From IMG/VR virus record IMGVR_UViG_3300028738_000014: a stretch of DNA of 64,000 nt, one strand, 5' to 3'. The notes under the pieces were generated by a model. It made no database searches and was not told where the DNA came from. It saw nothing but the letters and a program-made list of their open reading frames with translations. This DNA comes from a virus. Made by a program: the position numbers and the translations under genes. Shown piece by piece: positions 1 to 49,228 of this stretch; within the stretch, counting starts at the first letter, position 1; every line of letters begins with the position of its first letter.

Positions 1-1
1 G

Positions 2-138
2 GTTCTAGGGAGAAGAGTGGAATTTCTCAGGGCTCATGGATCGGTTTTAACACTGAAAATTAGTACAATAACCTGTTTAAAAACATCTTTCTACTGGAAA
101 AGTCTGAGATTACAACTAACTAATAAAAGGGGATAAGA
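2..138 (+). CDS. 3' end of an upstream gene entering the window (partial)
   Basis: Frame with no stop codon from nt 2 to TAA at 136-138; the stop lies inside a degenerate copy of the GGGG/CCCC linker. Confidence 0.2.
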
Positions 139-165
139 AAACCCCGGGTTATGAAATCAATTATG

Positions 166-201
166 TGTCCTTTAATCGATAATCTATGAAATCTATTTTT
201 G
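166..201 (+). promoter_or_regulatory. conserved promoter-like box TGTCCTTTAATCGATAATC ... TATTTTTG (copy A)
   Basis: Same box and 28-nt spacing as 6556..6591. Confidence 0.5.
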
Positions 202-221
202 TTTATCGATTTTGAAAAAGA

Positions 222-473
222 ATGGAAAAGCGGATACATATCAGTAAGATCTGGAAGATGATGGAAGAAAAGGACCGACTGGGAAAGCCGAAACCTTTTA
301 CTTTCAGGTATGCAAAAATGAACGGTGAAATTGAAACGTACAAAGATGCAACCATGACAAGTATTCACAGCAAGGGTGTAACGGTAAATATCATGCCGGC
401 AGGTGAGAAAGTTCCGCATACATTCCGTAAAATATTGATTCTAAGGTTTAACGAATTTAAAGTTTATCTATAA
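222..473 (+). CDS. hypothetical protein
   Basis: ORF in track; stop overlaps next start (TAATG coupling); preceded by conserved promoter-like box plus TATTTTTG. Confidence 0.45.
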   Translation: MEKRIHISKIWKMMEEKDRLGKPKPFTFRYAKMNGEIETYKDATMTSIHSKGVTVNIMPAGEKVPHTFRKILILRFNEFKVYL

Positions 474-1879
474 TGGCTAAGAATACAAAGGGTGCTTCTG
501 AGGTTTTTGATTTTGGTGAAAGTGCATTCCTGGCGGGTGGTGCTGCCATGGTGATCATGACCGACAGCCGGGATATGGTGGGCGATGTGAATACTCCTAC
601 CCAGGACTTTACTTTCAAAAGTGCTAAGGAACCGGTGAAGTTTGTACGACGTGGTGCAAACAATAAACTCCCCATTGAAGTGATGGAGAAAGTTTATGCC
701 CAGACTACCGTTGGTGCCAACATAGAATTTAATTCTAAGATGGCGTATGGTGATGGGATAATGGTGATGAAGAAAGTCAAGGATCCCATAACCGGTGACA
801 TAAAGCTTCAGGAACAATTGCCATCCGATTACCCTGAGATATTTAAATTTCTTGAGGACAATAATTATATCAACAGCCAACAGGAATGGGCGAATGATCT
901 ATCCGTATTTTATGAAAGTTTCTGTGAAATCATTCTGGAAGCCGGTAGCAATAAGATTTATTCTATACAACCGGTTGAATCAATAAATAGCCGTGTATCG
1001 CTGGTAAGTCCTACAAGTGGTAAAATAGAGTATCATGGGTTTTGCCTGGACTGGCCAAATGCGTCTGCAGAAAAAATAAAACTTACACCCCTGTTGGATC
1101 GTCGTATTTTCCTAATGGATTTAAAACGCCGGTTGGGATTAGAACTGGATCCTACAACGAAAAAGAAATCGGTAGTAAAGGATAAATCTTTTATGCTTCA
1201 GCTGATGCTTCCAACTCCGGGACGGTATTACAATGGTAAACCATATTGGTGGAGCATATTTACTGACTGGTATGATTTTGCATGTGCTATCCCGGCATTT
1301 AAAAAGGCATTGCTTAAGAATCAAATGGTACTGAAGTATGATGTGAAGATCAATATCACCTTCTGGGATAAACTCTTCAAACAGGAAGCAATTACTGAAC
1401 CTGAAGCAAAGAAAGTACGACGTGCAAAGTTCCTGACCGATATGAATAACTTTCTGTCAGGTGGTGAAAATGCCGGTAAATCGTTCGTCTCTCATTTTGA
1501 ATACGATAAAATTAAGGGCTATGAAATCAATGATATCATTATAAAAACCATTGATAGTTTTTTCAAAGGTGGTGAATATATTGATGACTCTGAAGAGGTG
1601 ACTAACATTATCAGTGGTGCCATGGGTGTACATCCTTCTATTGTTGGTGCCACTCCGGGCAAAGGTAAATCAATCAACGGTACTGAAGCCCGGGAACTGT
1701 TTATCATTAAACAAGCTATGATGAAACCTATTCGTGACCTGTTGGTGGCACCGCTTTACCTGGTTAAGGCAATCAATGGTTGGGATCCGGATGTATTTTT
1801 TATTATTCCGAATATAATGCTCACCACATTGGATCAGGGAACCGGGGCGGTGAAGGCAATAGGAAATCAAAAAGTTTAA
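473..1879 (+). CDS. hypothetical virion structural protein (468 aa)
   Basis: Large ORF in the co-oriented structural cluster; no recognisable motif. Confidence 0.5.
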   Translation: MAKNTKGASEVFDFGESAFLAGGAAMVIMTDSRDMVGDVNTPTQDFTFKSAKEPVKFVRRGANNKLPIEVMEKVYAQTTVGANIEFNSKMAYGDGIMVMKKVKDPITGDIKLQEQLPSDYPEIFKFLEDNNYINSQQEWANDLSVFYESFCEIILEAGSNKIYSIQPVESINSRVSLVSPTSGKIEYHGFCLDWPNASAEKIKLTPLLDRRIFLMDLKRRLGLELDPTTKKKSVVKDKSFMLQLMLPTPGRYYNGKPYWWSIFTDWYDFACAIPAFKKALLKNQMVLKYDVKINITFWDKLFKQEAITEPEAKKVRRAKFLTDMNNFLSGGENAGKSFVSHFEYDKIKGYEINDIIIKTIDSFFKGGEYIDDSEEVTNIISGAMGVHPSIVGATPGKGKSINGTEARELFIIKQAMMKPIRDLLVAPLYLVKAINGWDPDVFFIIPNIMLTTLDQGTGAVKAIGNQKV

Positions 1880-1917
1880 TTATTTACTATTTATTCATTT
1901 ACTATTTACTATTTACC

Positions 1918-2865
1918 ATGGGCGCAATCATTTCGACAATTGATCAGTTATGTAAGACTGTAAAGATAAATAAGAGTATTCCGTTTGATGTTGTGGAACC
2001 TTTCCTGACTACGGCGCGTGATATTTATCTGGTTCGGTACCTGGGTGTAGAGATGGTGGAAATACTTGAATCGGAAGAGACTCCGGAACGGGCAGTAAAA
2101 TTACTGAAGCTCGTTCAAAATGCATTGGGACCATTGGCCATTTGGTTGGGAACGGCAGAGTTATCGATACGGTTTAGTGATTCAGGGTTTACAGTATCAA
2201 AGAGTGATGCTGCAACCGGGTTTGTTCCGGCCAGTGATACAAAAATAAGCAAGGTGGAAGAAAGCCTGGAGCGTCGTGGTTTTCAATATCTGGATGCAGT
2301 GCTTGAATATCTCGAAACGAATGCAGACCTGTTTCCGGAATGGAAAGAAAGCCGGTATTATACGCTCCGGGGTGGTAACTACATTATCACTGCTACTCAG
2401 TTTCAGGAAATCGGACTGGTGGATATCGATTACAGCCGGTTGACTTTTGAAAGCCTTAGGTCAGTAATGGGAATGATTGAACTACGGTTCGTCAAAGAAC
2501 TATTGAGTGATACACTGGATACTTCTCTTCGCAGTAAATTGAACGGACTGCCTACTCCTGCAGAAATACAACTGATTGCATCCGTTCGCCGGTTCGTGGC
2601 CTGCAAAACAGCTCAGATCATAACCAGTGAAGCGAGTAAGGCTAACCGATCGGGTAGTGATGTGAAAGAATATAAACCAATTATCCGGCCATTGTATGCG
2701 GATCCGAATGATAACGGGAATTTTTTCGCTGAACAATCGGGATATTATTTCAGTAAAATACAACAGTGCCTGGTGATTTATGGTGTGGAGTTTGGAATTG
2801 TTCCCCCGGAACCGGCAATGAATTGGAATGTGTTGGAGAATAAAATTTTTAATATGGAGGGTTAA
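1918..2865 (+). CDS. hypothetical structural protein (315 aa)
   Basis: Track ORF 1780..2865 trimmed to first ATG after previous stop; followed by GC-hairpin linker. Confidence 0.5.
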   Translation: MGAIISTIDQLCKTVKINKSIPFDVVEPFLTTARDIYLVRYLGVEMVEILESEETPERAVKLLKLVQNALGPLAIWLGTAELSIRFSDSGFTVSKSDAATGFVPASDTKISKVEESLERRGFQYLDAVLEYLETNADLFPEWKESRYYTLRGGNYIITATQFQEIGLVDIDYSRLTFESLRSVMGMIELRFVKELLSDTLDTSLRSKLNGLPTPAEIQLIASVRRFVACKTAQIITSEASKANRSGSDVKEYKPIIRPLYADPNDNGNFFAEQSGYYFSKIQQCLVIYGVEFGIVPPEPAMNWNVLENKIFNMEG

Positions 2866-2867
2866 CA

Positions 2868-2920
2868 CCTCACCCCCTAACCCCCCTTTCCCAAGGGAGA
2901 GGGGGACAAGACGCAGTATC
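2868..2920 (+). repeat. GC-hairpin linker copy 1 (extended stem CCCCCC...GGGGG)
   Basis: TCACCCCCTAACCCCCCTTTCCCAAGGGAGAGGGGGACAAGACGCAGTATC. Confidence 0.7.
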
Positions 2921-2948
2921 TTTTATTTATCAACTTTAAATTATTTAT

Positions 2949-3233
2949 ATGATAGTTGCAAATGTTTCCGGAAATGAAGTTCTTTATAATGAAATTACGA
3001 AACAGTGGCATTTTATAGATGGTACAATTTCAGATAAAAATAATATTCGAGGTTGTGTTCGATGTGGAAAACTACCTACTGTTGATGGTCATGATTCGTG
3101 TATTGCAAATTTACCTGGAGTTAAAAATGCTTGTTGTGGACATGGTGTAGAGGATGGATATATTCAATTTGAAAATGGATTGGTATTAAGAGGCAGATTT
3201 TCTGTAGATCAAGATATAAAAACAATATCATAA
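2949..3233 (+). CDS. small Cys-rich protein, CxRCG...ACCGHG family (paralogue 1 of 3)
   Basis: Motif C-x-RCG-x-PT...D-x-C...ACCGHGV, near-identical to the 48577..48798 product and similar to 20177..20488. Confidence 0.55.
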   Translation: MIVANVSGNEVLYNEITKQWHFIDGTISDKNNIRGCVRCGKLPTVDGHDSCIANLPGVKNACCGHGVEDGYIQFENGLVLRGRFSVDQDIKTIS

Positions 3234-3243
3234 TCAACCAATC

Positions 3244-4071
3244 ATGAGAATATTACATATTGAAAATTATAACTATCCGCTTCCGGAGAGCCTGAATGAG
3301 ATGACAACTGATCAGTTGATATTTCTTTCGAAGTTGGTGGATAAGGTGATTCCTATTCAGGAGGTAAAGGTGAAGATGTTGTTTTGCTGTCTGGGTGCGA
3401 AGGTGAAGCGAATGAAGAATGCAGGGTATTACCGTATCCGGATTGAAAAGTTCGTATTTGCCATGACGGTGGAACAGGTGGCTGAAGTATCCGGTGCGTT
3501 TGATTATTTGTTTACTGATCCGGATAAAGAGGGACGTTGTTTTTTTGACTGCCGGTTAACGGTGAATCCATTCCCGAAAGTGAAGTTAGGATACAGAATA
3601 ATATTTGGTCCTGCCGATGCATTGACTGACATTTGCTATAACCGGTATATTTATCTGGAATCGTATCATTCGGTCATGGAGAATAAACCGGAGGCTGTAT
3701 ATGCTTTTTTGGGATGCTTGTTTACCGACCCGCTCGCGAAAAAGCGAACGGGTCGAAATGAGTTTGATCCGAACAATCTACGCCTGGAACTTATGCAGAA
3801 AATAAAGCCGGAGGTAGTAGTATTGATGTGTTGGTATTACCTGGGAAGTATCCGGTTTATTGCGGATAAGTTTCCACGGATATTTAGTGGTGACGGTGAA
3901 GTAAGTACCGGAAGTGCATACGATGGACAACAGAAACTTATTGACTTTATTGCCAAAGGTGATCCGGCAAAGAAGAGAATGAATAAAGAAGATAATCTAT
4001 ATGATATATTGTATTCGTTGGATTATATGCTGGAGAAAGAGGAAGAGAAGACAACGACCCCCAACCCCTAA
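3244..4071 (+). CDS. hypothetical structural protein
   Basis: ORF; C-terminus TTTPNP is encoded by the hairpin linker, TAA stop = hairpin loop. Confidence 0.5.
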   Translation: MRILHIENYNYPLPESLNEMTTDQLIFLSKLVDKVIPIQEVKVKMLFCCLGAKVKRMKNAGYYRIRIEKFVFAMTVEQVAEVSGAFDYLFTDPDKEGRCFFDCRLTVNPFPKVKLGYRIIFGPADALTDICYNRYIYLESYHSVMENKPEAVYAFLGCLFTDPLAKKRTGRNEFDPNNLRLELMQKIKPEVVVLMCWYYLGSIRFIADKFPRIFSGDGEVSTGSAYDGQQKLIDFIAKGDPAKKRMNKEDNLYDILYSLDYMLEKEEEKTTTPNP

Positions 4072-4095
4072 AGGGGGGTAAGACAAGAGAATAGT
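4052..4095 (+). repeat. GC-hairpin linker copy 2
   Basis: ACGACCCCCAACCCCTAAAGGGGGGTAAGACAAGAGAATAG. Confidence 0.7.
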
Positions 4096-4116
4096 TTGTA
4101 TAGTTTGATTTTTTTC

Positions 4117-4160
4117 GCCCTGTACTGGTCTGTGAAGATAGGTACAGGGTCTTTTTTTTT
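4117..4160 (+). terminator. intrinsic terminator
   Basis: 8-bp stem CCCTGTAC/GTACAGGG followed by T9. Confidence 0.7.
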
Positions 4161-4218
4161 GTTGTTAATAAATTTACATATCTTTGCAGAATAATATTTA
4201 TTAACCCTATAAAATAAA

Positions 4219-4581
4219 ATGTTTATGAAAAAAATTATGTTAGTGGCTGTAATGGTGATGTTTTATTTAAGTATTTTTTCTCAATCACCAACTGATTCGA
4301 TTAAGGCTAAATTTATGTATTGCGAAATTGTAGGCACTGGAAGTTTATTTAGTACTAAAGTAAAGATTGAAATTGATTATGGTCAGGAAGTAAGTTTTTG
4401 GAATCAAGCTAATGGAAGAACATTGAAAGATGAAACGGGAAATTCTATTAAATTTAATTCAATGGTTGATGCGTTGAATTTTATGGGGACTAAAGGATGG
4501 GAGTTTGTTCAGGCATACAACGTGCTTAAATCTAATCAGGATGTATATCATTGGTTATTAAAACAAGAGATAAAAAAATAA
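4219..4581 (+). CDS. secreted/exported small protein (moron)
   Basis: N-terminal hydrophobic signal peptide MKKIMLVAVMVMFYLSIFSQ; own TATCTTTG promoter box at 4181-4188; terminator upstream. Confidence 0.55.
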   Translation: MFMKKIMLVAVMVMFYLSIFSQSPTDSIKAKFMYCEIVGTGSLFSTKVKIEIDYGQEVSFWNQANGRTLKDETGNSIKFNSMVDALNFMGTKGWEFVQAYNVLKSNQDVYHWLLKQEIKK

Positions 4582-4601
4582 ACTTTTAATCATAAAAAAC
4601 T

Positions 4602-5087
4602 ATGATTTGGATTATCATTATCATTACTGTAGCTATGCTTTTTCTTTTTATACAATCAAAAAAACCAGTTTATACAAATGAACCAGAACCGGAACCTTAT
4701 GTCCATCGTGATTTTAGAACTGAGGCTATATTGAGAAATATAGAGTATATGGGTGACCCTGCCAAAGAGGTTGGTGATTTTACTATTGATGTTAAAGGTT
4801 TATTTTATAGAACCAAGAAAGCTCAGTTACGTGCATGTGAACTTGCTGAAACAGAAATATTGTTTTTAGAAATAGACAATAGAAATCAGCATGATAAAAA
4901 TGCTATAAAAGTAAAAACGTTTGATGATATTTTTATTGGATATGTAGATGAATTTTATTCAAAGAAAGTTCGTCAAATGATTGATTCTAATTTTGAAATA
5001 GATTGTTTTGTAAGTTCTGTTTCATTGGATGATATACCATATGTCTCTATGCAATTATATTATTCTGGAAATAAACAACTAATTTAA
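4602..5087 (+). CDS. membrane-anchored protein
   Basis: N-terminal TM segment IWIIIIITVAMLFLFI. Confidence 0.5.
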   Translation: MIWIIIIITVAMLFLFIQSKKPVYTNEPEPEPYVHRDFRTEAILRNIEYMGDPAKEVGDFTIDVKGLFYRTKKAQLRACELAETEILFLEIDNRNQHDKNAIKVKTFDDIFIGYVDEFYSKKVRQMIDSNFEIDCFVSSVSLDDIPYVSMQLYYSGNKQLI

Positions 5088-5167
5088 AAAATAATTGTAT
5101 TTTTATTTGGTAGATAAAAAAAAGTTTCGCACTTTTGCATCGCTGAATACAATTATAGGGCTTTAGG

Positions 5168-5191
5168 CCCACCAAACGAGGTGGTTTTTTT
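5168..5191 (+). terminator. intrinsic terminator
   Basis: CCACC-AAACGA-GGTGG followed by T7. Confidence 0.6.
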
Positions 5192-5277
5192 ATGCCAAAA
5201 AATGAAACTTATTTAAAATATGGCGATGCCATATATCGAGCCGCTTAGAACGGTAATTGCCCTATGGTGTATTCAGC

Positions 5278-5302
5278 AGCGATATATGAGCATCGCTTTT
5301 TT
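5278..5302 (+). terminator. intrinsic terminator
   Basis: AGCGAT-ATATGAGC-ATCGCT followed by T6. Confidence 0.6.
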
Positions 5303-5334
5303 ATGCTCTAAAACTAAATGCTGAATACACCAAA

Positions 5335-5571
5335 ATGACAACAACCACCATCCGCAGGCTACGTCCTGCAAAGCCTGTCAAGGGCAAAACAGTAAGCAGT
5401 GTAGAATCACTTGCCTTTCTGCGTGAATTTTATCTGGAAGTAAAACGCGAAATCAAAAAGCGCGAAACAATTATGATGAATGGCAGTCGTACCCCTGATT
5501 GTGATTCTGTGTCTTTTCTTGGTGAGAACTTTAGCCTGACTATTGATTTTAAAGAAAAATTCAGAGTATGA
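5335..5571 (+). CDS. hypothetical small basic protein
   Basis: ORF; 4-nt overlap with next ORF. Confidence 0.4.
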   Translation: MTTTTIRRLRPAKPVKGKTVSSVESLAFLREFYLEVKREIKKRETIMMNGSRTPDCDSVSFLGENFSLTIDFKEKFRV

Positions 5572-5849
5572 CAATTATCAATGGAATGGAAGTACGCGAC
5601 GAATTGATCGACTTACTTAAGAACTGGGCACCTTATAACGAAGATTGTGAAAGCCATGTTGATTCGGCTATTGAAAGTCTGTTTGAATTAAATGATTATC
5701 TGATCGGTGCCCTGACAGAGGTAGTGACTGATGATATTGTACGAATGAGAGAAATCAGTAATTACCTCATTAACGTGAAATCACTCAAGGATGATTTGAA
5801 AGAATTGAACGGAATATTGAAAGTTTGTAAAATTGAAAGGAAAAAATGA
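5568..5849 (+). CDS. hypothetical protein
   Basis: ORF translationally coupled to 5335..5571. Confidence 0.45.
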   Translation: MTIINGMEVRDELIDLLKNWAPYNEDCESHVDSAIESLFELNDYLIGALTEVVTDDIVRMREISNYLINVKSLKDDLKELNGILKVCKIERKK

Positions 5850-5958
5850 TGATTGAATAGTTAATCATTTATAAATATAAATTGTATATACTTGATTAAC
5901 AATTGATTACATTATCTTTATATCGAAATTAAACTATAAATCTTTTAAATCAATCAAA

Positions 5959-6504
5959 ATGGAAACAAAAATTATTTCATTTGAAGAAAACAACATTACC
6001 TTTTTACTTTCAAAAGATAATGGAATGATGATTAATGCCACCGAAATGGCAAAGATATTTGGTAAACAAGTTAATGAATTCATGTCAAATGAAAGTACAA
6101 TTCTATTTGTTAAAGAAGCTTTAAATAACGGGAATTCCCGTTATATTAACATTTCAAATCAAGATGAATTGTATCGTACGAATCAAAAATCTGGAACATT
6201 TATGCACCGAATTTTAGCTTTGAAATTTGCAGCCTGGTTAAGTCCTAAATTTGAATTATGGATCTATTCCACCATTGAAAAATTACTATTCGGTAAACAC
6301 GTTGACAGGGAACAATCTTTTGAAAGAACATTATCCTTACAGAAGGAATTAGATATTCTGAGAGATAAGCCGAATAAAACAGGTGCAGATTTTGAAAGAT
6401 ACTTAGAAATTCAAACATTGATCCGGAGAGAAAAAACAGTCAGATCGTTGCTTACAAAAGAAAGTATAAATGAAATGGCAGATTTATTCAAAGAACAAGA
6501 ATGA
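5959..6504 (+). CDS. KilA-N/ORF6N-like domain protein (antirepressor-like)
   Basis: N-terminal NATEMAKIFGKQVNEFM resembles the ORF6N/KilA-N motif; followed by terminator. Confidence 0.45.
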   Translation: METKIISFEENNITFLLSKDNGMMINATEMAKIFGKQVNEFMSNESTILFVKEALNNGNSRYINISNQDELYRTNQKSGTFMHRILALKFAAWLSPKFELWIYSTIEKLLFGKHVDREQSFERTLSLQKELDILRDKPNKTGADFERYLEIQTLIRREKTVRSLLTKESINEMADLFKEQE

Positions 6505-6527
6505 AAAATAACTGACGATAATGAAAG

Positions 6528-6554
6528 GCCTTACAGCAATGTAGGGCTTTTTTT
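6528..6554 (+). terminator. intrinsic terminator
   Basis: GCCTTACA...TGTAGGGC stem with one G-U, then T7. Confidence 0.6.
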
Positions 6555-6555
6555 A

Positions 6556-6591
6556 TGTCCTTTAATTGATAATCGGTAGATTATATTTTTG
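6556..6591 (+). promoter_or_regulatory. conserved promoter-like box TGTCCTTTAATTGATAATC ... TATTTTTG (copy B)
   Basis: Near-identical to copy A; about 27 nt upstream of ATG 6618. Confidence 0.5.
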
Positions 6592-6617
6592 TATTCATAA
6601 ATTGATACATAAAATTT

Positions 6618-7115
6618 ATGGAAGAATATAATCATTTTGCATATGGCCTACAGATGGCTACGCGGTTGAAGGCGGTGAAGCATACGGACCAGGACAGGCG
6701 TTGGTATGAATGTGCTGAGAGCGATAACCTGATAAGCCTGATGCAACGACTGAGTAGTGTTACCGGTACGGTGATGATCGGGCTGGATGGTAAGAATTCG
6801 GATTTCGGGTATAATGATGCTGAGTCGCTGAGAAAGAAACCGCAATACTTTTTTATGATCCTGACCACTGCCCGGGCAGATGATTCGGCGGCTATACTTG
6901 CGGGTCAGGAAATGTGCGAAGGAATTGCCCTTCAGATACAGGCGCGCATGATGTTGGATAGCCGGAATTATGATAATGGATTGACAGGGTTTATTCCGGA
7001 ATCGGTAACCATTCGCGGGATTGGTCCAATGGGAGATAATCTGTTTGGGGTGATTATGGGATTTAATGAGGAACATGGAGTGGATTATCAGATTAAGGAT
7101 GAATACTGGACATAA
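6618..7115 (+). CDS. hypothetical structural protein
   Basis: ORF; conserved promoter-like box upstream; hairpin linker downstream. Confidence 0.5.
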   Translation: MEEYNHFAYGLQMATRLKAVKHTDQDRRWYECAESDNLISLMQRLSSVTGTVMIGLDGKNSDFGYNDAESLRKKPQYFFMILTTARADDSAAILAGQEMCEGIALQIQARMMLDSRNYDNGLTGFIPESVTIRGIGPMGDNLFGVIMGFNEEHGVDYQIKDEYWT

Positions 7116-7157
7116 GAACCCCCGGCCCCTAAAGGGGAGGAAGAAAAGACCAAGTTT
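7116..7157 (+). repeat. GC-hairpin linker copy 3
   Basis: GAACCCCCGGCCCCTAAAGGGGAGGAAGAAAAGACCAAGTTT. Confidence 0.7.
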
Positions 7158-7190
7158 ATGAAAAAGAATATAATTTCCAATACTAATATT

Positions 7191-7220
7191 TCTTACTCCC
7201 CTTTAGGGGATGGGGGTAAA
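7191..7220 (-). repeat. GC-hairpin linker copy 3b (inverted)
   Basis: Reverse complement reads ACCCCCATCCCCTAAAGGGGAGTAAGA. Confidence 0.6.
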
Positions 7221-7222
7221 TT

Positions 7223-7897
7223 ATGAGGCCGGAATTAACGGATATGACCGTAAGCGACTGGATAGACGCTAAGACGGGAATGAATAACAGTGCTTTCACC
7301 AGGTTGGTGAGAACTGCTAAGGCCGGGGGTATTGAGGTCCCTTCTGTCGTAGTGGCTAACTTTAATCCACGAATTACTTTTGGATCATACTCCGGTAGTG
7401 ATACAGAGGCCTACATGCGTGTAAAGGATGTGGACGCGGTGAATCTGTTTAACACAAAAGTAAAAGCGTGGGCAACAAAGGTAGAAGGCGAACTGAAACA
7501 ATCGGCAGATTCACGGTTCGGGCACCGGGTGAGTGAACTGATAACAACAGAGTTTCCCCGGTTGAGCGATTCGATTAAAACAAACCTGAGATTTGACAAA
7601 CAGTATAAACTTGAAACGCGGTCGGTAGGGTTCTCCATGGCACGACATGGTGTTTATCTCCATGAAGGAGCTGGACGTGGATTCGGAGGATTGACAGGAA
7701 GTAAGTGGACGGATAAGTACGGAACTTTGAAAACAACTGCTTCTGCCAGTGAGGGTAAAATGGGAACGGGATCCAGAAAAGCGGAACCATGGTTTAATGA
7801 TATTATCCGGAATAACGAGGAAGAACTGGCGGATATATTAGCGGAATATAGTTTGGATCTGGTACTTAATATGAATAGTATCTTTTTGCCGGAATGA
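7223..7897 (+). CDS. hypothetical structural protein
   Basis: ORF flanked by hairpin linkers. Confidence 0.5.
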   Translation: MRPELTDMTVSDWIDAKTGMNNSAFTRLVRTAKAGGIEVPSVVVANFNPRITFGSYSGSDTEAYMRVKDVDAVNLFNTKVKAWATKVEGELKQSADSRFGHRVSELITTEFPRLSDSIKTNLRFDKQYKLETRSVGFSMARHGVYLHEGAGRGFGGLTGSKWTDKYGTLKTTASASEGKMGTGSRKAEPWFNDIIRNNEEELADILAEYSLDLVLNMNSIFLPE

Positions 7898-7943
7898 AGA
7901 ACCCCCGACCCCTAAAGGGGAGGAAGAAAAGAAAACCAAGTAT
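7898..7943 (+). repeat. GC-hairpin linker copy 4
   Basis: GAACCCCCGACCCCTAAAGGGGAGGAAGAAAAGAAAACCAAGTAT. Confidence 0.7.
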
Positions 7944-9593
7944 ATGAGAATAATAGCTGCTAAAGGAGAATTTAAATTGCCAACGGGCTTTGATGCGGAG
8001 ATGACACGAAATAATGTGTTGTTGACGGATACGGGCGATATGACGGCACCGATCACGCTACCGGGACTTCCGGAAAATTTGGCACTGGTGAAACATAGCA
8101 ATCGGGCAGATGCGTATTATAAACCGTTGACTGACCTGGACGTGATGGTGAATGATGGACTTATGAACCGGAGTTGTAACCTGGGTATTCATTCGGCGGA
8201 TGAAGAGGATGGGATATCGGCAACCATATACCTGGCAACGGGTGACTTTTATAGCCGAATTGGGAATACACGGTTGAACTGGTTGGGATGGCCAGTGTAT
8301 CATCACCAGGAATGGAGCCTGCAGAATATGCATGTTCAGTATTTGATTGATATGCTGAAACTGGAATACGATACTCCAACGGATGCAGCAATATTTTCTG
8401 TTCGACCGGTTGCCACTACTCAGGACACTACCTGGATCATGCCGGTTACCGGTGAGGAAATTCCGGGACTGTTTATATTGAATGGATTTGAAAAAGTGCA
8501 ACATGTACTTGATTTCAGTATTGACGGTACTGAATATTTAAATAGGTTCCAGGGTGAATTTACTCAACAAATTAAAGGAACTGATTCGGTGAATGCTATC
8601 GCGATCGGGTATGGAATGACTCCTTTTTTGAAACTCAGGTTTATGATGGACTTTATATTTGGAAAGTTTGGATATACAACTGATATGAGTTTTGTTACAT
8701 CCATTATTCCTGATTATTCAAACAGAATTGTATGCCTGAATAATGTAGCAGATGCTATCTATAGCGGTTCGTTGGATTTTAAACAGTTGGTACCCGACGT
8801 GACTATCAAGGAATTTATAACTCAGATAGAAAAGTTTCTGGGCGGTAAATTCGTGATTAATGAAGTTACCAAAATTGCTACATTTTATCGGTTTGAAAAA
8901 CAGCTTACCGAAGTGCCCGAGATAGACCTGACCAAGTACTTATCTTCTAAACCAAAATTAGGGAGTACGGAATTTACCACCATAAAGATTAATGATAGTG
9001 CTGACAGTTCTACCACTTCCAGCGATACTCAGGAAAGCGCTACAACCATTGATTTTGATTTTGTAAAAGAAGTATTGATTAAGGATTGGTACCTAAATAC
9101 GGACAATGAACGGGTTGATTGCGTGATTGGAATGGTGACTGTTGACGGGGTTATTAATGTGAAAAGTCAGATTGTGGTACCCGACAAAACGATAACTACC
9201 GAAAAACCTGCGACCTCAAGTTTGATACAATTAATGAATGTTGCAAACGGATGGGAGACTAAAGGTGTAGGTGATGCTCAAAATCATATCTGGTACATGA
9301 ATTTTAAACGGAGTTTCAGACTATTTACCGGAATGGGAGTATCGACCAAGGAAACTGTTGACAGTTTTTATATGGCATATAAGGATTTTAGAAAAAACAG
9401 CAATATCCCTCAAACGGCAGAAATGAATATTCCGACACCTGTATTGGATAATTTGATTCTTCCCGCTCCTGTGTTGTTGAACAATCAACCGGTAATGATT
9501 GAGAGTATAAAGTATTCAATGGGAAAGAGGGATAAACAAACGGTTGGTGTGAGGACGTTGAGACCTTTTTTTGAAAGAACCCCTAACCCCTAA
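7944..9593 (+). CDS. baseplate/tail structural protein (549 aa)
   Basis: Large ORF in tail region; C-terminal TPNP plus stop supplied by the linker. Confidence 0.5.
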   Translation: MRIIAAKGEFKLPTGFDAEMTRNNVLLTDTGDMTAPITLPGLPENLALVKHSNRADAYYKPLTDLDVMVNDGLMNRSCNLGIHSADEEDGISATIYLATGDFYSRIGNTRLNWLGWPVYHHQEWSLQNMHVQYLIDMLKLEYDTPTDAAIFSVRPVATTQDTTWIMPVTGEEIPGLFILNGFEKVQHVLDFSIDGTEYLNRFQGEFTQQIKGTDSVNAIAIGYGMTPFLKLRFMMDFIFGKFGYTTDMSFVTSIIPDYSNRIVCLNNVADAIYSGSLDFKQLVPDVTIKEFITQIEKFLGGKFVINEVTKIATFYRFEKQLTEVPEIDLTKYLSSKPKLGSTEFTTIKINDSADSSTTSSDTQESATTIDFDFVKEVLIKDWYLNTDNERVDCVIGMVTVDGVINVKSQIVVPDKTITTEKPATSSLIQLMNVANGWETKGVGDAQNHIWYMNFKRSFRLFTGMGVSTKETVDSFYMAYKDFRKNSNIPQTAEMNIPTPVLDNLILPAPVLLNNQPVMIESIKYSMGKRDKQTVGVRTLRPFFERTPNP

Positions 9594-9615
9594 AGGGGGA
9601 TAAGACCAAGTATAG
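9576..9615 (+). repeat. GC-hairpin linker copy 5
   Basis: GAACCCCTAACCCCTAAAGGGGGATAAGACCAAGTATAG. Confidence 0.7.
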
Positions 9616-9619
9616 TTTT

Positions 9620-9656
9620 TGTCCTTTACATTGAAATTAAGAATTTATATTTTTAC
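9620..9656 (+). promoter_or_regulatory. degenerate copy C of TGTCCTTTA box
   Basis: TGTCCTTTACATTGAAATTAAGAATTTATATTTTTA upstream of 9660 gene. Confidence 0.35.
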
Positions 9657-9659
9657 ATC

Positions 9660-9887
9660 ATGATTTTAAAGCAGCAACATAATACACCGGTGACGGCTCC
9701 GCAATTTGATAATATGACGGGGGCGTTGTTGAAGTATCGCAATTTCCGGGATGATCAGATTATCGGAATGGCTGATTTTTTGAAATTTGTAACAATGCCG
9801 AGTTCTGATAGGGATGAGTTTCTGAATTTATTTGTGGGAGAAGTGGTAGTGAGAAATAATATGTATGTGAAGGTGGTTTATAGATAA
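9660..9887 (+). CDS. hypothetical small protein
   Basis: ORF between two hairpin linkers; degenerate promoter box upstream. Confidence 0.45.
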   Translation: MILKQQHNTPVTAPQFDNMTGALLKYRNFRDDQIIGMADFLKFVTMPSSDRDEFLNLFVGEVVVRNNMYVKVVYR

Positions 9888-9890
9888 AGA

Positions 9891-9932
9891 AAGAACCCCA
9901 AGCCCCTAAAGGGGATGTGAAGACGCAGTATC
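9891..9932 (+). repeat. GC-hairpin linker copy 6
   Basis: GAACCCCAAGCCCCTAAAGGGGATGTGAAGACGCAGTATC. Confidence 0.7.
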
Positions 9933-9977
9933 TGATTTTTTGGATAAATAGTAAATAATTAAATAGTAAATATCTTA

Positions 9978-11495
9978 ATGGGATCGAACGATACATTGAA
10001 TTACCTGGCGGGAAATCCGATACTGATAAATATATTTACCGGGGTGAATGCTTCGGGTAGATATCGTATTTATTCGGGTATCAATTATACTGATTTGATC
10101 TATGATGGATGTGTATTTTCGATATCCGGAACGGCAACGATCGATGTATCAGAATTATTTAAATCTATGCAAATGAATGCCGGGGTAACGATTGGTAAGA
10201 TGGTGACTGTGGATGGAAATGGTGTGGAATATGTGGATACCAATAACAACGGGAATAGTACGAAACTGTTTAAATTTAAAGTTTTTGGAGGAGGTATCAG
10301 TAAGGCGTTACAACGTAAACTAACAGCATTGAATACGGATATTTTTGCATACAAATTGAAAGTAAGTAATAAGAACTTCTTTTTGACAACTCGTACCAAT
10401 GGACCAGTGATATCCATTCCGGAAGATGAATTATTACCACTTTATTATTATGCTCCTACCGGAAAGTTTTATGTAACCGCGGATGGGATCACACTCGAGA
10501 CTCATGATTTCACTGTATTGCCTCACTTGATTGGTGAAGATCTACAAGGGGGTAAGATAACCTATATTTATGGAATTGATAAATTTATTGTTGCTTATAA
10601 ACTGCCTGATTCAACCTGGGATGCTGCTATTGCTGCCTGTGATGCATTGAGTAACGCAGGATATAATGACTGGAGACTTCCAACGCTGGACGAGTTGGAA
10701 TTATTTGTTCTAAATGCGTTTAATGTAGGATTAGCATATGGACTTGATATGTGGAGCTCGACAGTAATGCCAGGAGATGCAACCCACGCCAGAACAGTTC
10801 GGTTCAGTCAGGGTGGAAATACCGGTAACCCCTTAAAGTCAGAAATCAATACAGTTTGGGCTATAAGGGATGTAGAAATTCGAGATTCGGCTGAGAGTTT
10901 GCAGAGTATTGATTTTGCAGCATTGCGATCGGAACTGGTAACTTCAGACAATAAACTGGTGAGTGTATTTGATATTACGACCGATACAAGTTATTCCTGT
11001 TCGGTTATGATTATTGAAAGTCAGAAGCGGACGGAGTACTTTGTAAAATTCCGGAACTCCTGGGGAAGTTGGGAGAAAATTGCCCTTCAGGGAGATGTCA
11101 GTTTTACCCCGGCATTTAGTGAAGTTACTCAGGTAGCAGAATGGGACACGGTGGTGAATGATTTTGTAACGAAGAATAAAAGGAAGGAAGTACTGAATTC
11201 ATTTAATGCAGGTGTGGGGTATCGATCGGAAGCGGAACGGCTATTCGTGATTGATATGATGATAAGCGAAACAGTAATATTGATTGCTAACGGACTTGAA
11301 TATCCGGTGAATGTGAGCGGTGAACTTCCGACCCTGGTAAGTACTACAGGAGTTCCGACGGATGTGACCTTGAAAATTGATTTTGTGGATAAGGAAACGA
11401 ATTTTAGTGACCTTACGATAGAGAGTGAATATGAAGTATTGGCGACAATGACTTTGGAAGATATAACGAGTGGTGAAGCGGATATAATAGTATAA
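9978..11495 (+). CDS. tail fibre protein with Lcl C-terminal (DUF1566)-like domain
   Basis: GYNDWRLPTLDELELFV motif typical of DUF1566. Confidence 0.55.
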   Translation: MGSNDTLNYLAGNPILINIFTGVNASGRYRIYSGINYTDLIYDGCVFSISGTATIDVSELFKSMQMNAGVTIGKMVTVDGNGVEYVDTNNNGNSTKLFKFKVFGGGISKALQRKLTALNTDIFAYKLKVSNKNFFLTTRTNGPVISIPEDELLPLYYYAPTGKFYVTADGITLETHDFTVLPHLIGEDLQGGKITYIYGIDKFIVAYKLPDSTWDAAIAACDALSNAGYNDWRLPTLDELELFVLNAFNVGLAYGLDMWSSTVMPGDATHARTVRFSQGGNTGNPLKSEINTVWAIRDVEIRDSAESLQSIDFAALRSELVTSDNKLVSVFDITTDTSYSCSVMIIESQKRTEYFVKFRNSWGSWEKIALQGDVSFTPAFSEVTQVAEWDTVVNDFVTKNKRKEVLNSFNAGVGYRSEAERLFVIDMMISETVILIANGLEYPVNVSGELPTLVSTTGVPTDVTLKIDFVDKETNFSDLTIESEYEVLATMTLEDITSGEADIIV

Positions 11496-11534
11496 AGAAC
11501 CCCTAACCCCTAAAGGGGGATAATATAAGATAAT
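11496..11534 (+). repeat. GC-hairpin linker copy 7
   Basis: GAACCCCTAACCCCTAAAGGGGGATAATATAAGATAAT. Confidence 0.7.
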
Positions 11535-15920: not shown

Positions 15921-15929
15921 AATAAAACC

Positions 15930-22605: not shown

Positions 22606-22857
22606 TCAGGTGTTTTCATTTTGTATTATTTTGTAACCCATTTCTTTTAAAAATTGATCAACAGGTACCGGGTTAAATCGCAATAACCCTTTTGGATTAG
22701 ATTTTAAATTTTCCGGATACGCGCTTACTTTATGTTCTTCAGCCCACTTTATGAATTGAGCAGTTTTTGAAAACTCAATTTTAAGAGCGAAAAACTCCCA
22801 ATTAAATAAATCCTTCGATTGTCCGGTCGGATTAATTAGAGTGATTGATTTAGCCAT
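22606..22857 (-). CDS. hypothetical protein
   Basis: ORF; 8-nt overlap with upstream gene. Confidence 0.4.
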   Translation of the reverse strand: MAKSITLINPTGQSKDLFNWEFFALKIEFSKTAQFIKWAEEHKVSAYPENLKSNPKGLLRFNPVPVDQFLKEMGYKIIQNENT

Positions 22858-23839
22858 TTTTTAAAGATTCTTCATATTCAGTTCTCATAACCGGTTCGAG
22901 CACTTTCCAACATTCCGGACAAAACCAATTACCAGCTGAGTCGCTTTCCATATCTTCAATATCAAATTCTTTGTTGCATGAAGTACATTCTTCAAGGCAT
23001 TCATCCCCGCCAGTGAATATGTTGTACTTTCGAGTTACATTACATCTGGCATCGGGAAATATCCCAAAATGCTTTTGAATTGATTCTTTCCAATATACTT
23101 TTGCAGGAAAGTGAGCGAGCGTATTCACTACTTGTAAATTGAAAGATCTAAGTTTATTATAGAAGTGTTTATCTACTTTTTGACCTGACATAAGGCCTAT
23201 TTTGTATAAATCACAATATCCCAACGATAGACGAATCATTTCGTAGCTTCTTTCAAAATCAATGATAGGTTCAATACTTGCAAAGGTCTTGAAACCCGCT
23301 TCATGTAACAGTTTCATGCCTTCAATCCGTTCCTGATTAGTTGATGCTCCCCTTTCAAGTTCATCATACCCTGTAAGAGTAAACCCAAATGCAATAAGTT
23401 TTCTCCATTCCCGATCGGCATTATCAGAATTGGAATGATTAAAATAATTCAAAGTACTTTCGACCCAACCGGCTAGTTTTGTAAGTACTTTAACTGGAAT
23501 TTCGTGTGCATTACAAAACATAATTGCCTTCCAGGTTAAATCCCAAAATTCAGTCAACATCGGATCTGTTGTAAAAGAAAAGAAAAGACCGTGTTTTTGA
23601 AGTTCTGTTTTATTGATTAATACCTCTTTTTTAAATATTTCAAAAGCGGTTATTTCATTAACCAAACATTTTTTAAGTTGAGGTCTATCCATTCCCATAA
23701 CACCTTTAAGAATACCTTTTTTGCAATAACAGTATTCACATCCATTTGAGCAACCTACTACTAAATTACAACCCCAATAACTATATTCCCTCGCTGCTCC
23801 GCTTGGATTATATATCGCCTTACCATTGAATTTTTTCAT
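22850..23839 (-). CDS. Cys-motif enzyme, radical-SAM-like / phage Gp37-Gp68 (DUF5131)-like
   Basis: NPSGAAREYSYWGCNLVVGCSNGCEYCY gives NP..GC...GCxxxCxxC; C-terminal CxxC zinc ribbon. Confidence 0.5.
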   Translation of the reverse strand: MKKFNGKAIYNPSGAAREYSYWGCNLVVGCSNGCEYCYCKKGILKGVMGMDRPQLKKCLVNEITAFEIFKKEVLINKTELQKHGLFFSFTTDPMLTEFWDLTWKAIMFCNAHEIPVKVLTKLAGWVESTLNYFNHSNSDNADREWRKLIAFGFTLTGYDELERGASTNQERIEGMKLLHEAGFKTFASIEPIIDFERSYEMIRLSLGYCDLYKIGLMSGQKVDKHFYNKLRSFNLQVVNTLAHFPAKVYWKESIQKHFGIFPDARCNVTRKYNIFTGGDECLEECTSCNKEFDIEDMESDSAGNWFCPECWKVLEPVMRTEYEESLKNG

Positions 23840-24490: not shown

Positions 24491-26119
24491 TTAGTTAAAC
24501 ATATCTGCTAATAAATCGAGAGTACTTTCACTTACTTCATCACTTCCACCCATAACGGCGTTGGCGATTCCTTTTTTTGTTTGAATTATTTGATAAACAC
24601 GTTCGTCAATTGTATTTCTACCTGAGAAATACCGTGCTGTAACACTGTCCTTCTGTCCCATACGGTGTGCCCGGTCCTCGCATTGGCAACAATCTGCATC
24701 AGTCCAGGGAAACTCAACAAACGAAACATCTGAACTGGCGGTAAGCGTTAGACCGACTCCGGCAGCTTTAATCGAGCAAATGATAATATTTGTTTTAGAA
24801 CTATTTTGAAAACTATCAACGGCTCTCTGTTTTTGTTCTTGATTTTCCCTTCCTGTTACACATACGGACGATGGAAAAGCGTGTTTAAGTTGATCAACTA
24901 CGATATGAAGAGAGCAAAATATAATCATCTTTTTTCCACTTAGCTGGAAGTCCTTTACGCAGTCTATAACCTCTTTTACTTTCCCTCTTGCAGTAATTTG
25001 TCTAAGTAGAGTTAACCGGACCATTGCAGCACTTTTGAGTGCATTTTTTATATTTTTATCAGTTGCTTCTTTATACTTCTTAAGATATTCTTTCAAATTA
25101 TTTTCAGCGAACTGGTATTCTTCACGGTTACTAATCTCAACTGTTACAAGTTGTCGAACTTTTGCGGGCAACTCTTTTAATACTTTTGCTTTTTCCCTTC
25201 GGAACATGCAATTTTCGTAAAGCATTGCGCTCAATACTTTCAAATTTGATGATTCGGTAGGACCGGCACAGAATTGTTTTTGAAAATTAATGGATCCACC
25301 AAAATCATTAAGCCGGCCAATGATTGAAAGTTGTGGTACCAGGTCCTTTGGTTTATTTACAATCGGGGTTCCTGTTAATCCGATTACATAATCTTTCCCT
25401 TGTGCTATTCCTTTGCAATAATTACTTTGTTGAGTAGAAGAAGATTTACAGCGGTGTATTTCATCAATAATGACCGACTTAAAAATCTTCACATTCTCCT
25501 TAAAAATCACATTTTTGAGTGAAAAATGCTCTGATTGTTTTTCATGCAATACAAAGTATTTCTTCAAAGATTCGTAATTGACTATGAAAACCTGATAAAT
25601 ACCCTGGTTAAAGTAATAAGGCCAATTATCACGCATTTCATCGGTTAATATCATTGCCTTTTTATCGGTAAACTTTGACCATTCACGCTCCCAATTGATC
25701 TTTAAAGAACTTGGACAAATAATAAGACAAGGGAATGATTGCGCTATGTTGATTGTTGCAATGCTTTGCATACTTTTTCCAAGGCCAGGCTCATCGGCAT
25801 TAATGCACCTCTTTAAAACAAGTCCTCTTGCTATTCCTTTGAGTTGATAGTCGCGCGGCTTTAGCTTTAATTGATGCGGAACCAATAAATCTGGCATTTC
25901 AGACTCAATACTTTTCTTTTGCCAATCAACCGGTCCAAATCCTTTAGCACATTCAGCGTAATGTTGAAGTTGAGCTAAAGAGGAGCGGGGTACATTCCAG
26001 GTCTTTAAACTTGGAATGTATTTTGCCCCCTCAATCTTCTTTATTTCACTTGACAATCTTGGATGAAAGTCAAATTCAACAATATATAAATCCGTTGATA
26101 TGTCAAGTTGTATAGTCAT
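24491..26119 (-). CDS. SNF2-family helicase (paralogue 1)
   Basis: Motif I DEPGLGKSMQSIA, motif II DEIHRCKS, C-terminal helicase motifs (QCEDRAHRMGQ). Confidence 0.8.
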   Translation of the reverse strand: MTIQLDISTDLYIVEFDFHPRLSSEIKKIEGAKYIPSLKTWNVPRSSLAQLQHYAECAKGFGPVDWQKKSIESEMPDLLVPHQLKLKPRDYQLKGIARGLVLKRCINADEPGLGKSMQSIATINIAQSFPCLIICPSSLKINWEREWSKFTDKKAMILTDEMRDNWPYYFNQGIYQVFIVNYESLKKYFVLHEKQSEHFSLKNVIFKENVKIFKSVIIDEIHRCKSSSTQQSNYCKGIAQGKDYVIGLTGTPIVNKPKDLVPQLSIIGRLNDFGGSINFQKQFCAGPTESSNLKVLSAMLYENCMFRREKAKVLKELPAKVRQLVTVEISNREEYQFAENNLKEYLKKYKEATDKNIKNALKSAAMVRLTLLRQITARGKVKEVIDCVKDFQLSGKKMIIFCSLHIVVDQLKHAFPSSVCVTGRENQEQKQRAVDSFQNSSKTNIIICSIKAAGVGLTLTASSDVSFVEFPWTDADCCQCEDRAHRMGQKDSVTARYFSGRNTIDERVYQIIQTKKGIANAVMGGSDEVSESTLDLLADMFN

Positions 26120-26788: not shown

Positions 26789-26912
26789 TGGTGTGTACAG
26801 GATTCGAACCTGCACGTGTTCCTTTTCCAGTTTATTACGAGGGCTCGAACCTCGTCACACGTTAGCTATATTTCAAGCCTACTGTTGCGTCTACCAATTC
26901 CGCCAACACACC
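26789..26912 (-). ncRNA. 124-nt tRNA-like gene (type-II Leu/Ser-like arms with about 50-nt internal insertion)
   Basis: Minus-strand transcript has a perfect 7-bp acceptor GGUGUGU/ACACACC, D-arm GCGGAAUUGGUAGACGC identical to bacterial tRNA-Leu, T-arm GCAGG-UUCGAAU-CCUGU and a second GGUUCGAGCC hairpin; no canonical anticodon arm found. Confidence 0.5.
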
Positions 26913-48994: not shown

Positions 48995-49067
48995 GCCTTT
49001 TTAGCTCAGTTGGTAGAGCGATTGCCTTGTAAGCAATAGGTCGTACGTTCGAATCGTACCGGAGGCT
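48995..49067 (+). tRNA. tRNA-Thr (anticodon UGU)
   Basis: Cloverleaf: D-arm GCTC-AGTTGGTAG-AGCG, anticodon arm ATTGC-CTTGTAA-GCAAT, T-arm GTACG-TTCGAAT-CGTAC; acceptor has two G-U pairs and one mismatch. Confidence 0.65.
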
Positions 49068-49228
49068 CAAAACCAAAAGAAAAGGGGATTTTGAAAGTAG
49101 TTGAAATTTATTGGTATCTGATCAATACCTTTGAATTAATATTATTTTTTGTAAAGCTAACAAAATAGGAATCCCCGCCGAACTACTGCCAACATGCAGA
49201 CGAACTGTAATAAAAGAGCTTTAAACAA

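Follow-up and report, generated by a model that had tools for sequence, protein, structure and literature searches.

A short hairpin repeat shared by Bacteroidota chromosomes and phages at gene ends in the late module of a temperate phage

The repeat in the window

The window, that is, the whole stretch of 64,000 nt analysed here from the IMG/VR record IMGVR_UViG_3300028738_000014, is a temperate tailed phage that encodes an integrase (36221), an S24 repressor (35127), a terminase (46532), a portal protein (49273) and a capsid protein (51844), together with DnaB and a sliding clamp. In the distal part of its late module, in genes taken to be those of the baseplate and tail fibres, gene ends carry copies of a short GC-rich element with the core GAACCCC-NNN-CCCC-TAAA-GGGG. 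This element belongs to a repeat family that is dispersed in bacterial chromosomes and present in phages, is organised in inverted doublets, shows a positional bias towards gene ends, has been gained or lost between related phages and is associated with genes for DUF559 nucleases. The flanking phage genes gave nearly nothing in PHROGs and Pfam, only DUF6712 and Lcl_C, and Lcl_C/DUF1566-type domains are present in genes 9978 and 11535. A 1169-aa protein without a Pfam match is a putative tape-measure-like protein, judging by its size and position.

The repeat was detected in the window far above chance by pattern searches, as CCCCTAAAGGGG with at most one mismatch gave 8 matches against 0.13 expected, and the 22-nt pattern GAACCCCNNNCCCCTAAAGGGG with at most three mismatches gave 7 against 0.00 expected. 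A repeat search aligned seven direct copies as family D1 and found the inverted pair I3 (7118-7146 / 7189-7217; 29 nt, 90% complementarity). Moreover, an nhmmer profile built from 181 distinct copies of the element found exactly seven copies (4057+, 7113+, 7217-, 7896+, 9574+, 9890+ and 11494+), all between 4057 and 11526, and none in the rest of the window past 11.5 kb (the other 52 kb); likewise, the profile found no copies in the head, tail-tube and early regions. The inventory thus comprises six canonical direct copies (4055, 7113, 7896, 9574, 9890 and 11494) and one inverted copy (7189-7219), with a long-stem variant and a remnant as extras. These features are given below, together with their state in the related phage contig IMGVR_UViG_3300031521_000547 (hereafter L034).

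121-150, no strand: degraded inverted-doublet remnant (TAAAAGGGGATAAGAAAACCCCGGG), seen in repeat families D2 and D9, upstream of the promoter-like site at 166-201; the orthologous doublet is intact in L034
2866-2920, + strand: long-stem variant, CACCTCACCCCC-TAA-CCCCCCTTTCCCAAGGGAGAGGGGG-ACAAGACGCAGTATC, abutting the stop codon at 2863-2865
4055-4094, + strand: solo copy of the CAA..GGT subfamily; the open reading frame (ORF) 3244-4071 stops at the loop TAA (4069-4071); kept in L034
7113-7149, + strand: left half of a doublet, CGG..AGG subfamily, starting immediately after the stop codon (7113-7115)
7150-7188, + strand: doublet spacer, containing AAGACCAAGTTT-ATG and CCAATACTAA, the same inner motifs as in chromosomal doublets
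7189-7219, - strand: the doublet's right half, of the CAT..AGT subfamily; its end is 3 nt upstream of the ATG at 7223
7896-7943, + strand: solo copy of the CGA..AGG subfamily, occupying the entire spacer from the stop at 7897 to the ATG at 7944
9574-9615, + strand: solo copy of the TAA..GAT subfamily; ORF 7944-9593 stops at the loop TAA
9890-9932, + strand: solo copy of the AAG..ATGTG subfamily with the flank AAGACGCAGTATC; not in L034
11494-11534, + strand: solo copy of the TAA..GAT subfamily with the flank GATAATATAAGA; not in L034

A previous, sequence-only reading of this region had described a repeat family with conserved flanks, situated at gene boundaries within a host-range module and including an inverted copy between 7115 and 7223. 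All of this is borne out by the pattern counts, the D1 alignment, the profile search and the copy at 7189-7219, and the check that it had proposed, an alignment of the copies, succeeds both for the seven direct copies of D1 and, over 29 nt, for the pair I3. Other parts need amendment. The copies do follow stop codons, but not those of seven consecutive genes, as six + strand genes without the element intervene (2949-3233, 4219-4581, 4602-5087, 5335-5571, 5568-5849 and 5959-6504). The copy announced at 2865 is present but is a divergent variant with a 10-bp stem rather than a canonical copy, and the statement that copies often run straight into the next ATG is true for three of seven (7158, 7944 and 11535) but not for the remaining ones. 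The partial copy at 121-150 is related to the repeat, but it is a degraded doublet, at the same place as the intact inverted doublet of L034.

Several copies have features of their own. The variant at 2866-2920 forms a 10-bp stem, CCCCCCTTTC/GGGAGAGGGG, with a folding energy of -22 kcal/mol, and it resembles copy 9890 only in its C-run prefix and in the flank AAGACGCAGTATC on the 3' side; variants of this type are also found in contigs L015, L029, L036 and L060, and one copy flanking a DUF559 gene has a long-type stem, TCCCCCTCTCC/GGAGAGGGGGA. The ORFs upstream of copies 4055 and 9574 enter the element and stop at the TAA of the hairpin loop, so that their products end in ..TPNP*. The flank GATAATATAAGA of copy 11494 recurs in a locus of the genome collection (L159), where the sense copy that has it extends over the stop codon of a DUF559 gene. 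In the doublet, a 22-codon ORF (7158-7226; MKKNIISNTNISYSPLGDGGKL) begins in the spacer, crosses the right half and overlaps the next start codon (ATGA), and it is partly conserved in L034 as an 18-codon counterpart; that it encodes a conserved peptide is doubtful, since conserved DNA motifs account for the resemblance. Similar N-termini, of the type M..NTN..SPLGVRGS, are found where the reverse complement of the element is within the 5' end of chromosomal ORFs, among them apparent signal-peptide n-regions (L132 and L136).

Unit, doublets and position relative to genes

In all the DNA fetched around matches (1.39 Mb), 436 copies are present, mainly intergenic or at gene ends. The unit has the consensus (A)AAGAA-CCCC-YRR-[CCCC-TAAA-GGGG]-ARTAAGA and a length of about 32-45 nt; in the position profile, its conserved part reaches from about position -3 to about +28, counted from the start of the core. 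The core is nearly invariant, with the stem CCCC/GGGG in 280 copies and the loop TAAA replaced by TGAA in 13, and the flanks and two variable triplets define lineage-specific subfamilies. An extension of the stem through these triplets was rejected, as they co-vary as subfamilies (TAA..GAT, CAA..AGT, CGA..AGG, AAG..ATGTG and AAA..CTT) and do not pair. The idea that a stop codon is a constant component of the element was also discarded, positions -4 to -1 being merely A-rich and stop-like triplets having a frequency of 63% against 45% in the control, and a telomere-like or G-quadruplex reading of CCCTAA/TTAGGG was dropped because the G-runs per strand are too few.

Pairs of neighbouring copies at distances of up to 200 nt have a strict arrangement: 98 are '+ then -', none is '- then +' and 44 are in tandem. 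The complete element is thus an inverted doublet whose GAACCCC ends point outward in the manner of terminal inverted repeats. Of such doublets with their cores turned outward, 89 non-redundant ones of 54-213 nt were counted, including the one at 7113-7219 in the window, and about 45% of the copies are in doublets. The doublets have asymmetric inner flanks, which are conserved from Paludibacter chromosomes to the phage (left, ..GCAAGTA or ACCAAGTAT; right, CCAATACTAA..), and the solo copies of the window correspond to left halves of the doublet. The two halves often come from different subfamilies, and tandem and nested copies are common, including copies inserted after the CCCCTAA(A) of an older copy.

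Folding, which had been recommended as a check, gives a divided answer: the doublet region 7105-7235 is the only strong hairpin (-56.4 kcal/mol, z = -6), whereas the solo copies of the window fold like shuffled sequence (z from -1.1 to +0.65). The earlier statement that the element is not a classical terminator with a T-tract is confirmed for the sense strand, on which the position profile shows no U-tract after the stem and the copies are followed by the A/G-rich ARTAAGA. On the antisense strand of the solo copies and at some doublet ends there are weak terminator-like matches, and the doublet hairpins often end in GGGGTTCTTTT, which is terminator-like. A search against Rfam 15 retrieved only tRNA at the gathering threshold and, at an E-value threshold, only sub-threshold miRNA-like noise on the doublet.

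Inside the canonical family no compensatory changes were found, the stem being the same throughout the 280 copies. The divergent subfamilies that flank DUF559 genes keep the hairpin by paired changes (CTCCC/GGGAG, CCTCCC/GGGAGG and TCCTCCC/GGGAGGA), and their first C-run shifts in step with the 5' arm of the stem. When 24 sequences chosen by hand were aligned, 18 had CG, 4 had UA and 2 had UG as the fourth pair, and the eight cells changed on both sides were equalled or exceeded in 1 of 500 shuffles; as evidence of a conserved structure, these paired changes are suggestive only.

With respect to genes, the copies in the genome loci lie in 159 co-directional, 23 convergent and 4 divergent spacers, the divergent class representing 11.5% of the intergenic spacers there and 17% by length. 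For 64 copies with a long co-oriented ORF upstream, the stop codon of that ORF falls within the element in 19 and precedes it by at most 5 nt in 28. The stops inside the element fall at core positions 8, 15 or 25 and close all three reading frames, so that insertion at the 3' ends of genes would be tolerable. Solo copies in sense orientation outnumber antisense ones by 52 to 37 in chromosomes, by 52 to 15 in viral contigs and by 5 to 0 in the window.

These observations bear on the possibility that the element acts in cis as an RNA signal of the late transcript, which a conserved factor of Bacteroidota would recognise both in host operons and in the phage, and that it tunes the expression of adjacent genes, be it as a protective or processing hairpin at the 3' end, as a structure coupled to translation termination or as a block to antisense transcription. 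Such a signal would be expected in the transcribed inter-cistronic and 3' positions that the copies occupy, with avoidance of divergent promoter regions, abutted or overlapped stop codons and a sense bias in phages, and it would also be in keeping with the long hairpins of the doublets, their terminator-like ends, the weak terminator scores of minus-strand solo copies and the compensatory change of CG to UA at the fourth and fifth pairs of the divergent subfamilies. Moreover, at 121-150 and 9574 the element lies just upstream of promoter-like sites. Nevertheless, the solo hairpin has only 4-5 bp and the stability of shuffled sequence, about 40% of the chromosomal solo copies are antisense, there is neither an Rfam match nor a U-tract in the sense direction, the three inner stem pairs are invariant and hence uninformative about structure and, as described below, five of seven orthologous junctions in L034 are empty. 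Altogether, an RNA signal seems unlikely as the reason for the presence of the copies.

Dispersal in hosts and gain and loss between related phages

The exact 22-nt core was found in 60 viral stretches of IMG/VR, often several times per contig and on both strands, and in at least 120 stretches of a collection with one genome per species. Among the 80 genome matches listed, 40 are assigned to Paludibacter, Paludibacteraceae or Bacteroidales and 20 are of the Chitinophagaceae type, the others listed being Saprospiraceae/Haliscomenobacter, Emticicia, Aequorivita, Fulvivirga and unclassified Bacteroidota, with a few bins labelled Roseobacter, Chloroflexota or Thermoflexales. The chromosomal neighbours are housekeeping genes, such as those for ABC transporters, a NADH dehydrogenase subunit, ALAD, MraW, LGT and homoserine O-succinyltransferase. 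A full-text literature search for the core sequence retrieved no relevant paper, and the interspersed family is apparently not yet described; blastn against the phage records of INPHARED found no relative of the window. In the bins not labelled Bacteroidota, namely the metagenome-assembled genome Roseobacter sp. GFS_4015 (L097, L100, L105, L114 and L134) and the Chloroflexota/Thermoflexales bins (L065 and L115), the core is present on many contigs with a flank subfamily of its own, CGA..AGTCGTTGA, and short-spacer doublets; either mis-binning or a wider host range would account for these cases.

Over positions 1-11,500 of the window, L034 is syntenic, with 75-88% amino-acid identity over most shared genes, and it lacks the element at five of the seven orthologous junctions, namely those after 1918-2865, 7223-7897, 7944-9593, 9660-9887 and 9978-11495. 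The five empty junctions contain nothing or unrelated ATGATATGAT-type repeats, which are found in place of the element at the junction that matches copy 7896. The element after the orthologue of 3244-4071 is common to both phages, and after that of 6618-7115 both have a doublet, with a left half of the TAA..GAT subfamily in L034 versus CGG..AGG in the window; upstream of the orthologue of 222-473, there is an intact doublet in L034 versus the remnant in the window. Compared with L034, copy 9574 appears as a clean indel of about 42 nt between the gene end and a conserved promoter-like sequence, with replacement of the C-terminus of the encoded protein (..FFERTPNP* in the window versus ..YSDR* in L034). 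The gene 2949-3233, which comes after the variant at 2866-2920, has no counterpart in L034, and the gene downstream of copy 11494 is different and non-homologous there. This gain and loss, together with the nested copies, fits a mobile or recombining repeat and not a conserved regulatory site. Many metagenomic variants of the phage exist, the protein of 7223-7897 being encoded in 49 blocks of the collection.

Other linkers of the region vary as well. AT-rich TATTTACTATTTA-type repeats at 1875-1915 and 9941-9972, in opposite orientations and 93% complementary over 28 nt, are located upstream of genes 1918 and 9978, and the same two junctions in L034 have unrelated GGTAGT or ATGATATGATTTT tandem repeats, indicating that the linkers between the genes of this phage group consist of low-complexity repeats and are hypervariable.

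The sequence-only reading had also raised the possibility of a recombination linker for modular swapping. In a fuller form of this proposal, comparable to the boundary stem-loops of T4-type phages, gene-border stretches of about 30 nt would be kept identical because co-infecting phages or prophages can swap tail and accessory gene modules there by homologous exchange. One part of it stands, as the copies are clustered in the host-range module and variable accessory genes adjoin or separate them. Downstream of copy 4055 there is a T-tract terminator and then a moron-like accessory block (4084-6550) with T-tract terminators of its own, which encodes a 120-aa lipoprotein-like protein, a HIRAN-domain protein (4602-5087) and a KilA-N protein (5959-6504), as well as two small genes with homologues in other element-bearing phage contigs; in L034, the block is wholly different, with two other small genes between the same conserved borders, and the element and terminator are kept. 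In related phage contigs, a SufE-domain gene (L004, 3258-3727) and a Tad2-like anti-Thoeris gene (L028, 4643-5428) are located between + and - copies, and the replaced gene 3' of copy 11494 and the different subfamilies at orthologous sites, which suggest conversion or replacement, point in the same direction. However, a sharp mosaic breakpoint at 15922, at a gene boundary before which contigs L054, L005 and L032 are 99.5-99.9% identical to the window and after which they are unrelated, has no element or repeat, and what bounds the variable block 4084-6550 on its right is a promoter-like repeat instead of the element. Furthermore, bracketing of ordinary genes by '+...-' is not enriched, since such genes sit between doublets (11 '+...-' versus 42 '-...+'), DUF559 being the exception, and chromosomal copies next to housekeeping genes would be left unexplained. 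Exchange at the copies would follow from any dispersed repeat and does not speak for selective retention. Thus, it is quite improbable that the copies are maintained as recombination linkers.

A phage-specific cassette, such as a target of a late-transcription regulator or an attenuator setting stoichiometry, had been suggested too, and a phage-specific promoter would be a kindred reading. The copies are co-oriented with the late genes and three of them reach start codons, but the same core in ordinary chromosomal contexts and the empty junctions of L034, a close relative, contradict this idea, as do the frequent inverted copies and doublets and the lack of copies in the head, tail-tube and early regions. 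The sites that do resemble Bacteroidota promoters (TGTCCTTTA..TAnnTTTG) are distinct sequences, and sigma-70-type sites are not enriched (55 found versus 58 expected); a phage promoter or regulator target is therefore most improbable. The promoter-like repeat itself, TGTCCTTTA-N19-TAnnTTTG, of the Bacteroidota -33/-7 type, is present at 166-201 and 6556-6591 (2 exact matches versus 0.02 expected) and, in related form, at about 9617-9655. These sites are located just upstream of genes 222, 6618 and 9660 and suggest several internal promoters in the late module.

Some other features of the window are unrelated to the repeat or distant from it. A tRNA-Thr(TGT) is encoded at 48995-49068 (+), between the terminase and portal genes, and an Rfam tRNA-like match at 26789-26912 (-), with 124 nt and 37.8 bits and not called by ARAGORN, may represent a tRNA that is degenerate or has an intron. 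Two SNF2-family helicase genes (24491-26119 and 27937-29655) and a weak radical-SAM-like gene (22850-23839) are located on the minus strand in the early region and have no relation to the repeat.

DUF559 nucleases, known systems and the nature of the repeat

Among 122 small genes neighbouring the element in the genome loci, DUF559 is the joint commonest Pfam family (n = 6), and four of the five '+ gene -' brackets of 250-3500 nt in these loci enclose a DUF559 gene. Genes of this kind, encoding about 120 aa, lie within a repeat(+)-gene-repeat(-) arrangement in L101 (3232-3658), L109 (491-1056), L062 (3974-4552) and L135 (3651-4172) and in many of the metagenome loci L181-L260. In an independent test with 80 metagenome loci fetched by DUF559 protein alignment alone, a profile match was found within 250 nt of the DUF559 gene in 49, and a second detector, looking for the direct repeat plus the hairpin, found an upstream (+) and a downstream (-) element within 200 nt in 32 of the 80 and at least one element in 53. 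Counted by orientation around DUF559 genes, 50 elements are of the upstream (+) and 48 of the downstream (-) kind, compared with 20 and 10 for the other orientations, and the density of elements near the gene is about 18 times that farther away. The association of DUF559 with the doublets is robust, and a literature search on DUF559 returned nothing about repeats. The DUF559 profile matches PDB entry 3hrl with E = 1e-26 and, with E = 3e-5, I-Bth0305I (3r3p), a Vsr-like homing endonuclease; DUF559 may be the enzyme that mobilises the repeat, a homing gene with doublets as its target, or just cargo.

The repeat behaves like a repetitive extragenic palindrome (REP) or a small MITE (miniature inverted-repeat transposable element), but it departs from the defining features of both. 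REPs and their inverted doublets, REPINs, are mobilised by REP-associated tyrosine transposases (RAYTs). The element resembles them in its short GC-rich hairpins, extragenic 3' or inter-cistronic location, inverted doublets, tandem and nested arrays, subfamilies within genomes and occasional in-frame insertions into coding ends; the 436 copies, mainly extragenic, are those of a palindromic repeat of 20-40 nt, and the inverted doublet is its common unit. However, a hairpin of 4-5 bp with an unpaired C-run, preceded by a direct repeat of the 5' arm of the stem, is atypical, and the tetranucleotide GTAG/CGTC at the hairpin foot is absent, the 5' side being (A)AAGAA-CCCC-YRR. REPs are usually lineage-specific, whereas the core of the element is identical across orders, the family is also present in phages and its recurrent gene encodes a DUF559 nuclease of the PD-(D/E)xK type, not a HUH enzyme. 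No protein with the motif HUH..Y was found in six-frame ORFs of the 181 sequences and no Y1_Tnp domain among the neighbours, a result that covers the loci only, RAYTs being single-copy per genome. For RAYT subclass 2.6 of Bacteroidetes, flanking structures that are atypical and have no GTAG have been reported (PMC6006769).

MITEs, such as the Correia elements of Neisseria, share with the doublets a size of about 100-140 bp, terminal inverted repeats, intergenic location and long RNA hairpins, and the 89 doublets have inverted ends at distances within the range of 50-500 bp expected for MITEs. MITEs shared with hosts have already been catalogued in viral genomes as 'vMITEs' (bioRxiv 10.1101/2024.01.18.576219), to which the sharing of the repeat between a host clade and its phages can be likened. 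Nevertheless, neither a target-site duplication nor a parent insertion sequence with a transposase was identified for the doublets; no transposase was found among the neighbours, and the only recurrent gene inside doublets, DUF559, is not a known transposase. Moreover, half-units of 35-45 nt often occur alone and apparently insert by themselves, as in the indel at 9574, and the ends of a doublet often come from unlike subfamilies.

Other systems are less similar. The promoter early stem-loops (PeSLs) of T4-type phages are phage-specific and combine a strong early promoter with a functional terminator (PMC2839356, PMC4122927); like them, the element is a short conserved stem-loop at gene borders in variable phage regions, with accessory genes that differ between relatives, but it has neither a promoter nor a sense U-tract, lies in a late tail module and is chromosomal in hosts. 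With integron attC sites it agrees only in that CCCTAAC/GTTAGGG approximates RYYYAAC/GTTRRRY, its solo units being of about 35 nt and no IntI-type integrase being nearby; the integrase of the window (36221) is a tyrosine recombinase of the Phage_integrase family at least 25 kb from the copies, unlike an integron arrangement. Finally, DUF559 shares a nuclease fold with Vsr-like (EDxHD) homing endonucleases such as I-Bth0305I, a likeness drawn from sequence profiles, and its genes are embedded in a repeat that could be their target; in contrast to homing endonucleases, they encode a single domain, have no intron or intein context and are not found in the window.

The interpretation that we favour, with a probability of about 0.6, is that the linker is a REP/MITE-like interspersed hairpin repeat native to the chromosomes of Bacteroidota, especially Paludibacter, Chitinophagaceae and Saprospiraceae, and shared with their phages, and that it has colonised the baseplate and tail-fibre module of this phage. 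In the prophage state, a temperate phage with an integrase and an S24 repressor would be exposed to the repeat dynamics of the chromosome, and the present load is one doublet, five sense solo units, one variant and one remnant, all at or overlapping the 3' ends of genes. The repeat would spread by nuclease- or hairpin-dependent copying, through homing or transposition, possibly helped by recombination between copies. Any effects on phage mRNA, for instance through a 3' hairpin or through blocking of antisense transcription, and any on the exchange of modules would be by-products rather than the cause of its presence.

Several observations weigh against this interpretation. Genes for a transposase or a RAYT were found in none of the loci, no recurrent direct repeat was found outside the ends of the 89 doublets, and neither the window nor the viral loci contain a DUF559 gene. 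When the spacers of the doublets were compared with the untranslated regions next to DUF559 genes, the matches were marginal and short and gave no clear similarity, so that a derivation of the doublets by internal deletion is at most conjectural. In addition, the core is letter-identical across bacterial orders and its three inner stem pairs show no drift, which a conserved binding site of a host factor would fit as well, and the sense-strand bias in phages, with the close apposition to stop codons, hints at selection on the transcript.

As a more specific and decidedly tentative proposal, which we consider possible although rather doubtful, the family may be an unrecognised class of selfish elements, in which the repeat would be the end or target, DUF559 would drive the copying of doublets and solo units, and the copies in phages would be non-autonomous passengers. 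Under this proposal, the DUF559 nuclease encoded inside a doublet would act by homing or by nicking of hairpins, copying the repeat into sites close to stop codons in the chromosomes of Bacteroidota and in their temperate phages.

If the linker is indeed a host repeat that has colonised the phage, its pattern of stop codon, hairpin and start codon would be the footprint of a host-wide repeat and not a regulatory design, which calls for caution in the interpretation of intergenic repeats in prophages. The family could then be used as a marker to link phages to hosts, pointing here towards Paludibacter-like hosts, and its copies may be a source of homology for the exchange of tail-fibre and accessory genes. 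Insertions close to stop codons would rewrite the C-termini of proteins, as in the ends in ..TPNP*. Moreover, the embedding of DUF559 genes in doublets would provide a testable function for a very large family of unknown function, and maybe a new type of nuclease-associated mobile element.

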